A DNA stretch of 64,000 bases, from the sequence record PV654397.1, one strand, 5' to 3'. The DNA is from Escherichia phage WPEC5. Positions 20,160-20,597 of the stretch are shown here, one piece after another. Under the pieces are notes generated by a model. It did not search any database, had not been told where the DNA came from, and saw only the letters and a program-made list of their open reading frames with translations. The stretch's first letter is position 1. Each line of letters opens with the position of its first letter. Both the position numbers and the translations under genes were made by a program.

Positions 20160-20597
20160 TTATTTAATCATCTCGGTATAGTAATCAGGTAAGTCAACGT
20201 CAGTAAATTTATACCAAGTAGGCTTCATCTGGAGCTTCTCAATCAAACGCTCACGAGACATTTTAATCTCTGACTCCGATGGTACGTAGTCATTACAAAA
20301 CTCAGCAGGGAAGCCGCTAATGTCGTTTACTTCAGTGTTTTGAATCTTCATACCACGACGCAAACATTCGTTAACAATATCAATATGACGCTTCTGTAAG
20401 TACAGTAACTTGTTGTAGAAGAATGTTACATGACCTGAACCTAACAGGTAAGTACTGTTAATTTTGAAATCACGGACTCGCTTACGTGCTTGAACATGTT
20501 TTTGTACAGCACCAAACACACGTGGGAGTTCACGATATTCAGCCATCAGATGTTGGTCAGCAAGTTCTTTAACGTGTACTAAGTTAATGCGTGTCAT
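20160..20597 (-). CDS. denV: pyrimidine-dimer DNA glycosylase, T4 endonuclease V homologue
   Basis: [31 protein letters not shown]...[12 protein letters not shown]...PTWYK matches the T4 DenV sequence as I recall it along its length. Confidence 0.9.

Follow-up and report, generated by a model that had tools for sequence, protein, structure and literature searches.

The window analysed here, 64,000 nucleotides of Escherichia phage WPEC5 (PV654397.1), carries on its minus strand an open reading frame whose product closely resembles endonuclease V (DenV) of phage T4. The features at and around this gene that the following account draws on are these:

20160..20597, minus strand: denV coding sequence, an ATG-to-stop ORF of 145 aa plus stop, predicted pyrimidine-dimer DNA glycosylase / AP lyase
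20605..20611, minus strand: Shine-Dalgarno-like GAGAGGA, 7 nt upstream of the denV ATG, read from the sequence
20626..20663, minus strand: putative composite terminator/promoter cassette with a hairpin at 20634-20663, a -35 TTGACT at 20650-20655 and a TATAAT at 20626-20631
20602-20739, minus strand: ORF of 45 codons holding the remnant (20662..20739) of a homing-endonuclease gene of the free-standing HNH type, directly upstream of the denV cassette
19929..20144, minus strand: ORF of 71 aa, function unassigned, between denV and the next cassette
19903..19938, minus strand: second cassette copy, with a hairpin at 19913-19938 plus T-run (-20.2 kcal/mol, z = -5.2)
16235-16270, 18030-18065, 19903-19938, 20626-20661, 24922-24957, 27965-27997 and 31559-31591, minus strand: all cassette copies in the window
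40077-41045, minus strand: sigma-70-family sigma factor of 322 aa with Pfam Sigma70 regions 2 and 3, in the early region

The ATG of denV occupies positions 20595-20597. Its product matches the Pfam profile PF03013 (Pyr_excise) with 55.9 bits against a cut-off of 23 (E = 5.5e-15). Residues 1-131 align without a gap to residues 1-131 of T4 endonuclease V (PDB 2END; E = 3.8e-54), and BLASTP gives an identity of 64.1% over these 131 residues, a similarity far above chance level. A preliminary description of the window had named the gene a T4 DenV homologue and suggested a BLASTP comparison with the T4 protein, in which low identity or a non-significant alignment would have spoken against it; the profile match and the gap-free alignment bear the proposal out. 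Judged from the sequence and from a model of the fold, the ORF is a genuine, intact homologue of T4 DenV and a member of the T4 endonuclease V family, whose enzymes act specifically on cyclobutane pyrimidine dimers (CPDs). We give this reading a probability of about 0.9, a joint figure for the identity, mechanism, expression and evolution of the gene as set out below; the exchange between phage lineages that forms part of it is rated lower on its own, as probable.

A tblastn search with DenV against 50,697 phage records retrieved an identical protein from Escherichia phage Turkey3 (361 kb). Proteins of 91-96% identity are encoded by fEgEco12, 121Q, PBECO4, slurp01, phAPEC6 and other Asteriusviruses, followed by the Klebsiella phages RaK2 and K64-1 at about 81% and by XbC2, Kaldavass, GAP32, CBB and pEa_SNUABM_49 at 66-72% (with Eneladusvirus among the genera of this last group). 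The record of 121Q is assigned to the genus Asteriusvirus, Rak2-like jumbo E. coli phages of about 350 kb. As a 12-kb DNA query around denV is 88-99% identical to fEgEco12, Turkey3, CMSTMSU, 121Q and PBECO4, and the gene order is that of 121Q, the window comes from an Asteriusvirus, that is, from a Rak2-like jumbo coliphage. The window also agrees with the 121Q map in its RCC1-like genes, which form a tandem array, in its numerous small ORFs, in the RpoD-like sigma factor and in the cluster of tRNAs. The array (3-12893, plus strand) consists of about eleven tandem paralogous genes for proteins of approximately 370-396 aa with RCC1-like repeats, according to a Pfam check on one copy, and corresponds to gp234-248 of 121Q, annotated 'regulator of chromosome condensation'.

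The records of the relatives annotate the gene as 'endonuclease V N-glycosylase UV repair enzyme' or 'denV'. Orthologues are gp217 of 121Q, F403_gp244 of RaK2, GAP32_498 of GAP32 and, in CBB, FDG95_gp460 (RefSeq), which is CBB_519 in the CBB paper. That paper lists 'UV repair endonuclease V (CBB_519)' as one of the T4 homologues found in Rak2-like phages (PMC5259590). The denV gene of PV654397.1 is a resident gene of an Asteriusvirus that has been annotated and published before, which the preliminary description had not realised, and its detection is a correct and ordinary finding of little importance beyond the right annotation. Endonuclease V is not mentioned in the papers on Atu_ph07 and PA5oct, two more distantly related jumbo phages. 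A metagenomic subgroup of DenV proteins (P0033-P0047, from contigs of 90-112 kb) has the C-terminus FYRWT..KP.W and 60-67% identity to the window protein. We considered this group as a donor lineage of the gene and rejected it: in the top-ranked hits from the phage collection, the cultured phages nearest to it are again the Rak2-like ones (65-70%), and these hits include no close cultured representative.

Compared with the T4 enzyme, the window protein keeps T2, R3, Q15, H16, Y21, R22, E23, R26, H34, H56, R117, K121, W128, Y129 and K130. The basic DNA-contact residues R3, R22, R26, R117 and K121 are therewith all present. For residues other than Thr2 and Glu23, the catalytic and DNA-binding roles are those of their counterparts in the T4 enzyme. 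The N-terminus reads MTRINL, and E23 lies inside the motif AEYRELPR. Y131 of T4 is conservatively replaced by F, the aromatic segment being W128-Y129-K130-F131 against WYKY in T4. Across 49 homologues with identities down to 48%, T2, R3, Q15, H16, R22, E23, R26, H56, R117 and Y129 are invariant, and Y21 and K121 are conserved in at least 90%. The chemistry of the family combines a Schiff base formed by the N-terminal Thr with a catalytic Glu (Glu22 in mature numbering; PMC3285167).

The AlphaFold2 model of DenV (pLDDT 93.8, pTM 0.88) is an all-alpha fold. In Foldseek its best match in the PDB is 2END (TM 0.87/0.92, rmsd 1.0 Å over 130 columns), the only significant PDB matches are crystal structures of T4 endonuclease V, and no other fold was found at an E-value below 1. 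Over 131 gap-free codons, dN/dS of denV is 0.05 against 121Q, 0.09 against RaK2 and 0.06 against XbC2, indicating strong purifying selection. Since the decisive residues are kept, the predicted fold matches that of the T4 enzyme and the gene is under purifying selection, we assign DenV as a functional CPD glycosylase/AP lyase, an activity that we infer from homology.

An inactive protein, or one that retains the fold and has been repurposed for another lesion or for modified host DNA, is very unlikely. Some room for such a change is left by the C-terminal tail specific to the Rak2-like clade (T..x.P.YY..M[IL], with a predicted helix at 138-144) and by the acidic extension of 13-26 aa added in many Asteriusviruses. 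However, every catalytic and DNA-contact residue of T4 that was checked has been retained, the 1.0 Å superposition on the T4 enzyme leaves the fold unaltered, and the strength of purifying selection also speaks against it. If the window protein functions as the T4 enzyme does, its initiator Met would be removed and the alpha-amino group of Thr2 would attack C1' of the 5' pyrimidine of a CPD. Assisted by Glu23, a Schiff-base intermediate would form and the base would be released; beta-elimination would then nick the DNA on the 3' side. The outcome would be short-patch repair of the UV-damaged phage genome without the host UvrABC.

Upstream of denV, a 36-nt element, AAAGGGTTGACTTCAGTCGGCCCTTTTTGCTATAAT (20626-20661), combines the signals of a terminator and a promoter. 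The hairpin arms of the repeated element are AAAGGGTTGAC-TTCG-GTCAGCCCTTTTT. In the denV cassette the hairpin has a predicted energy of -20.8 kcal/mol (z = -4.5) and is followed by a T-run. The -35 TTGACT lies within the hairpin and is separated by an 18-nt spacer from a TG-extended -10 TATAAT; a promoter scan counted 11 of 12 sigma-70 consensus positions plus the TG extension. The window has seven copies of the element (33-36 nt, at most two mismatches), each of them on the minus strand, against 0 expected by chance. The same cassette is found directly upstream of denV in 121Q, fEgEco12, RaK2, CBB, XbC2, Kaldavass and pEa_SNUABM_49 and is absent from this position in GAP32. In five other Rak2-like phages, which belong to several genera, it is nearly identical, though their DenV proteins are only 66-81% identical to that of the window. 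The GAGAGGA closer to the start codon is conserved in Turkey3, 121Q and fEgEco12.

Promoter and element scans detected no cassette between denV and the 71-aa ORF, which is probably co-transcribed with denV. As the next cassette copy comes only after the 71-aa ORF, the two genes give the impression of a single short unit that is transcribed early. It would be terminated by the hairpin and T-run of the copy at 19903-19938, the promoter of which would then begin a further unit. Going by these signals, the sigma-70 RNA polymerase of the host would read denV early, from the near-consensus promoter inside the terminator hairpin, and the short unit of denV and the 71-aa ORF would end at the next cassette copy. 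An Rfam scan of the window reported tRNAs only and no structured RNA at the denV locus. One weak extra tRNA-like match (57287-57365, minus strand; 32.6 bits against a cut-off of 29) has no ARAGORN call and adjoins a 161-bp tandem duplication at 56918-57262.

The surroundings of denV are mosaic. The product of the ORF at 20602-20739 contains the first five and the last 28 residues of an HNH endonuclease, an in-frame deletion of approximately 317 bp (blastn) having joined the start of the HNH gene to its last 28 codons. At the same site, fEgEco12 has an intact HNH gene of 137 aa (g570), with the C-terminus of which the remnant shares 25 of 28 residues in tblastn; at the denV site of 121Q neither an intact HNH gene nor a remnant was found. 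On the other side, homology to fEgEco12 and 121Q ends at position 20194, corresponding to denV codon ~134, and is found again from 16280 on, some 10 nt ahead of the cassette copy at 16235-16270. The intervening 3.9-kb segment (16281-20193) is missing in fEgEco12 and largely missing in 121Q and contains the 71-aa ORF, genes for tandem-repeat proteins and two further cassette copies. The break at codon ~134 results in a short tail and a protein of 145 aa instead of the acidic-tailed form of 158-171 aa (171 aa in the comparison with fEgEco12). The short form of 144-145 aa is shared by the window, Turkey3 and CMSTMSU, whereas 121Q, fEgEco12 and most Asteriusviruses have the long form, the acidic tail of which ends in EEQIKDEMNNY, as it does in XbC2. 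Read from the alignments, the mosaicism of the denV region is the pattern expected of a shuffling of cassette-bounded modules.

The repeat proteins beside denV are built from a module of about 55-70 aa (KTTEQFIKDAKEKRTDIDFDYSKVNYIN..KVTIIDPEFGEFDITP..FL.G.GHP), which occurs in tandem and as decayed copies at 16776-17783 and 18477-19860, mostly on the minus strand; one inverted copy lies on the plus strand at 16838-17245. The main repeat gene is broken up into a pair of ORFs that overlap, 19168-19860 and 18477-19208, where Turkey3 has a single protein of 432 aa annotated as 'DUF4379 domain'. At a comparable position 121Q has gp221, annotated 'endonuclease' and likened to the repeat gene by position alone. 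The Pfam hits of the repeat proteins to Peptidase_C58, Dark_CARD and Muted contain no individually significant stretches and were set aside, and there is no credible Pfam match for the module. At 15436-16206 on the minus strand, an ORF encodes a protein of 256 aa with weak matches to AAA/STAND-type NTPases, most of them under the Pfam thresholds; it is conserved beside the denV module in fEgEco12, 121Q and Turkey3.

In T4 the order of genes is e-ipIII-ipII-denV (X04567). Neither e nor ipIII nor ipII is among the ORFs listed around denV in the window or among the genes annotated around it in 121Q and Turkey3, and the neighbours of denV are instead small ORFs without an annotated function, the HNH remnant and the genes for repeat proteins. 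The tRNAs, at 52786-55549, are 32-35 kb away. Thus, in its neighbours as well as in its distance from the tRNAs, this is not a T4-like (Straboviridae) denV locus. The tRNA cluster of T4 lies a few kb from denV. The sigma factor is the counterpart of 121Q gp167 and GAP32_490, and no gp55-type family is among its reported Pfam matches. The preliminary description was accurate on all these points, having noted a neighbourhood that does not follow the T4 order, a distance of about 35 kb to the tRNAs and a sigma factor that is not gp55-like. Its suggestion of a distant lineage is also sound: according to the CBB paper, Rak2-like phages possess 21 of 38 T4 core genes at 20-46% identity and branch outside all T4-like clades (PMC5259590). 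The same source places a gp55-like sigma factor, CBB_244, elsewhere in Rak2-like genomes besides the RpoD-like one (PMC5259590). To call the genome otherwise non-T4-like was therefore an overstatement, as Rak2-like phages are recognised distant relatives of T4.

How the gene came to be shared by T4 and these phages was approached with a distance-based neighbour-joining tree of 28 labelled DenV proteins (~138 columns, 1000 bootstraps). The DenVs of Rak2-like jumbo phages are monophyletic with 95% bootstrap support. A clade supported at 90% unites them with the DenVs of Tequatrovirus, Karamvirus, Gelderlandvirus and other T-even phages of enterobacteria. This clade leaves out the DenVs of RB43 (Pseudotevenvirus), Aeromonas phage 31.2 (Biquartavirus) and phi-pp2 (Schizotequatrovirus), all assigned to the Straboviridae in their records, as well as those of Ackermannviridae, Pootjesviridae and Queuovirinae. 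Within it, the jumbo DenVs form the sister group of the enteric T-even DenVs in 50% of replicates and branch from among them in 43%. BLASTP identities to T4 DenV are 64% for the window protein, 57% for Bragavirus, 37% for RB43, 38% for Aeromonas phage 31.2 and 35% for phi-pp2.

CBB allows a comparison with other proteins of the same genome. Its DenV is 58% identical to that of T4 and 37.5% to that of a KVP40-like phage (BLASTP), whereas the 20 CBB core proteins tabulated in the CBB paper are 20-46% identical to T4 and 21-47% to KVP40 (PMC5259590). DenV is thus an outlier when set against the T4-core proteins of CBB, both in its level of identity and in the asymmetry between T4 and KVP40. Since DenV evolves fast within the Straboviridae, slow evolution cannot explain this pattern. 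A single exchange between an enteric T-even lineage and the Rak2-like ancestor would be the most economical reading. We thus regard as probable an exchange of denV, in one direction or the other, between the T-even phages of enterobacteria and an ancestor of the Rak2-like genera, before these diverged. The dating follows from the presence of DenV, as one monophyletic group, in four named Rak2-like genera and in Kaldavass. Since then denV would have been passed on vertically inside the Rak2-like clade.

A purely vertical history would place DenV already in the ancestor that Rak2-like phages share with the Straboviridae, without any exchange, and would put its high identity to T4 down to strong constraint. 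This is rather unlikely, though it has points in its favour: the 21 T4 core genes of Rak2-like phages, an argument of the CBB authors against a horizontal gain of these genes (PMC5259590), the occurrence of a monophyletic DenV in every sampled Rak2-like genus and a tree that permits, at 50%, a sister relation to the enteric T-even clade. Constraint, however, is not unusually strong, since DenVs within the Straboviridae are only 35-57% identical to T4. Moreover, Rak2-like DenVs reach 58-64%, far from the 20-46% of a CBB core that, in the published values, is equally distant from T4 and KVP40 (PMC5259590), and the clade uniting jumbo and enteric T-even DenVs leaves out three genera of Straboviridae (90% bootstrap). 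If the distant Straboviridae had themselves replaced their DenVs, the argument from incongruence would lose force, and vertical descent combined with such a replacement is the alternative to an exchange.

The probable exchange would be old, as the wide presence of denV in Rak2-like phages, its saturated synonymous sites and its unremarkable composition suggest. Synonymous sites are saturated in the comparisons with GAP32, CBB and T4. The GC content of denV is 39.0% against 34.4 ± 3.2% for 90 minus-strand ORFs (z = 1.4, rank 9/90), and GC3 has z = 1.6. DenV is present behind the same cassette in Asteriusvirus, Alcyoneusvirus, Mimasvirus and Eneladusvirus and in the unclassified jumbo phage Kaldavass, with GAP32 as the exception that has no cassette.

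A recent gain of denV by WPEC5 from a co-infecting T4-like phage is effectively refuted by these data. The setting would suit such an event: the early region is hyperplastic and contains debris of mobile elements, with the HNH remnant directly upstream of denV, repeated cassettes flank the gene, and its GC content is slightly over the local mean. In contrast, T-even DenVs are at most ~67% identical among the matches found in the searches and the alignment, saturation at synonymous sites extends to T4, and the orthologues in four named genera and Kaldavass fall behind the same cassette and into one clade (95%). We also looked for a compositional signature of recent transfer and discarded it, the gene being an outlier neither in GC nor in GC3. 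Of the horizontal acquisition considered in the preliminary description, which had also proposed a phylogeny, the acquisition itself is probable, given 58-64% identity to T4 and the grouping of jumbo with enteric T-even DenVs at 90%. It was not recent, given the 95% monophyly across four genera and Kaldavass.

A search around denV brought no block of several genes in common with T-even phages. A second small gene common to the T-even and Rak2-like lineages is, by sequence comparison, a gene of about 77 aa resembling gp229 of phage JS98. It adjoins denV in RaK2 (ORF292; L005 5485-5718), GAP32 (GAP32_497) and Kaldavass (35791-36012), its products are 35-51% identical to those of many enterobacterial T4-like phages, and tblastn did not detect it in Asteriusvirus records. 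In T-even phages such as UPEC07 and KMB20 it lies about 87 kb from denV. Homologues of the 71-aa ORF occur in four Asteriusvirus records only. With this narrow distribution of the one gene and the large distance of the other from denV in T-evens, a co-transfer of denV with a block of genes was dismissed. It is conceivable, as a tentative idea, that cassette-bounded modules, with or without free-standing HNH genes, carry accessory genes such as denV and the JS98-gp229-like gene between two unrelated lineages of enterobacterial myoviruses, the T-even and the Rak2-like jumbo phages, in co-infection. If cassette modules do move accessory genes, modular shuffling of the PeSL type would reach beyond the Straboviridae.

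Rak2-like jumbo coliphages thus have a UV-damage repair enzyme of their own, with early expression suggested by its promoter, which is useful background for UV inactivation of such phages and for phage therapy. That their DenV is more T4-like than the core genes CBB shares with T4 would be evidence of old gene traffic between T-even and Rak2-like phages, which have enterobacterial hosts in common.

Among the closest known systems is the T4 enzyme itself (DenV, T4-PDG; PDB 2END, 1VAS and 2FCC), with which the window protein has Thr2, Glu23, Arg3/22/26, Arg117, Lys121 and W128-Y129-K130 in common. The C-terminal ends differ: T4 DenV ends in YGKAIYA, and the window protein has a different end with a predicted additional short helix. 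T4 denV and window denV are both short early genes with a stem-loop and a promoter upstream; the T4 record X04567 annotates a stem-loop and a -10 box ahead of denV. The Rak2-like orthologues share with window denV the location in the early region and, GAP32 excepted, the upstream promoter/terminator cassette.

For the cassette, a close parallel is offered by the PeSLs, elements in T4-type phages that combine a promoter with a terminator (Arbiol et al. 2010, PMC2839356; Comeau et al. 2014, PMC4122927). Like these, the window cassette has a stem-loop of the form A3-4 G3 ...loop... C3 T4-5 together with a near-consensus sigma-70 promoter, and it is repeated across a hyperplastic early region, at indel boundaries between close relatives. 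It differs from them in belonging to a phage group outside the Straboviridae and in that its hairpin encloses the -35 hexamer. The window cassette agrees with the 'RpoD-like promoters' described from the early region of CBB; the portion of the CBB paper drawn on here does not use the name PeSL for them (PMC5259590). With a stem-loop joined to a sigma-70 promoter, repetition and association with indels, the cassette has the features of a PeSL-type element with putative promoter and terminator activity and a putative role in recombination, and the denV region appears to be built of cassette-bounded modules that resemble the PeSLs of T4-type phages.
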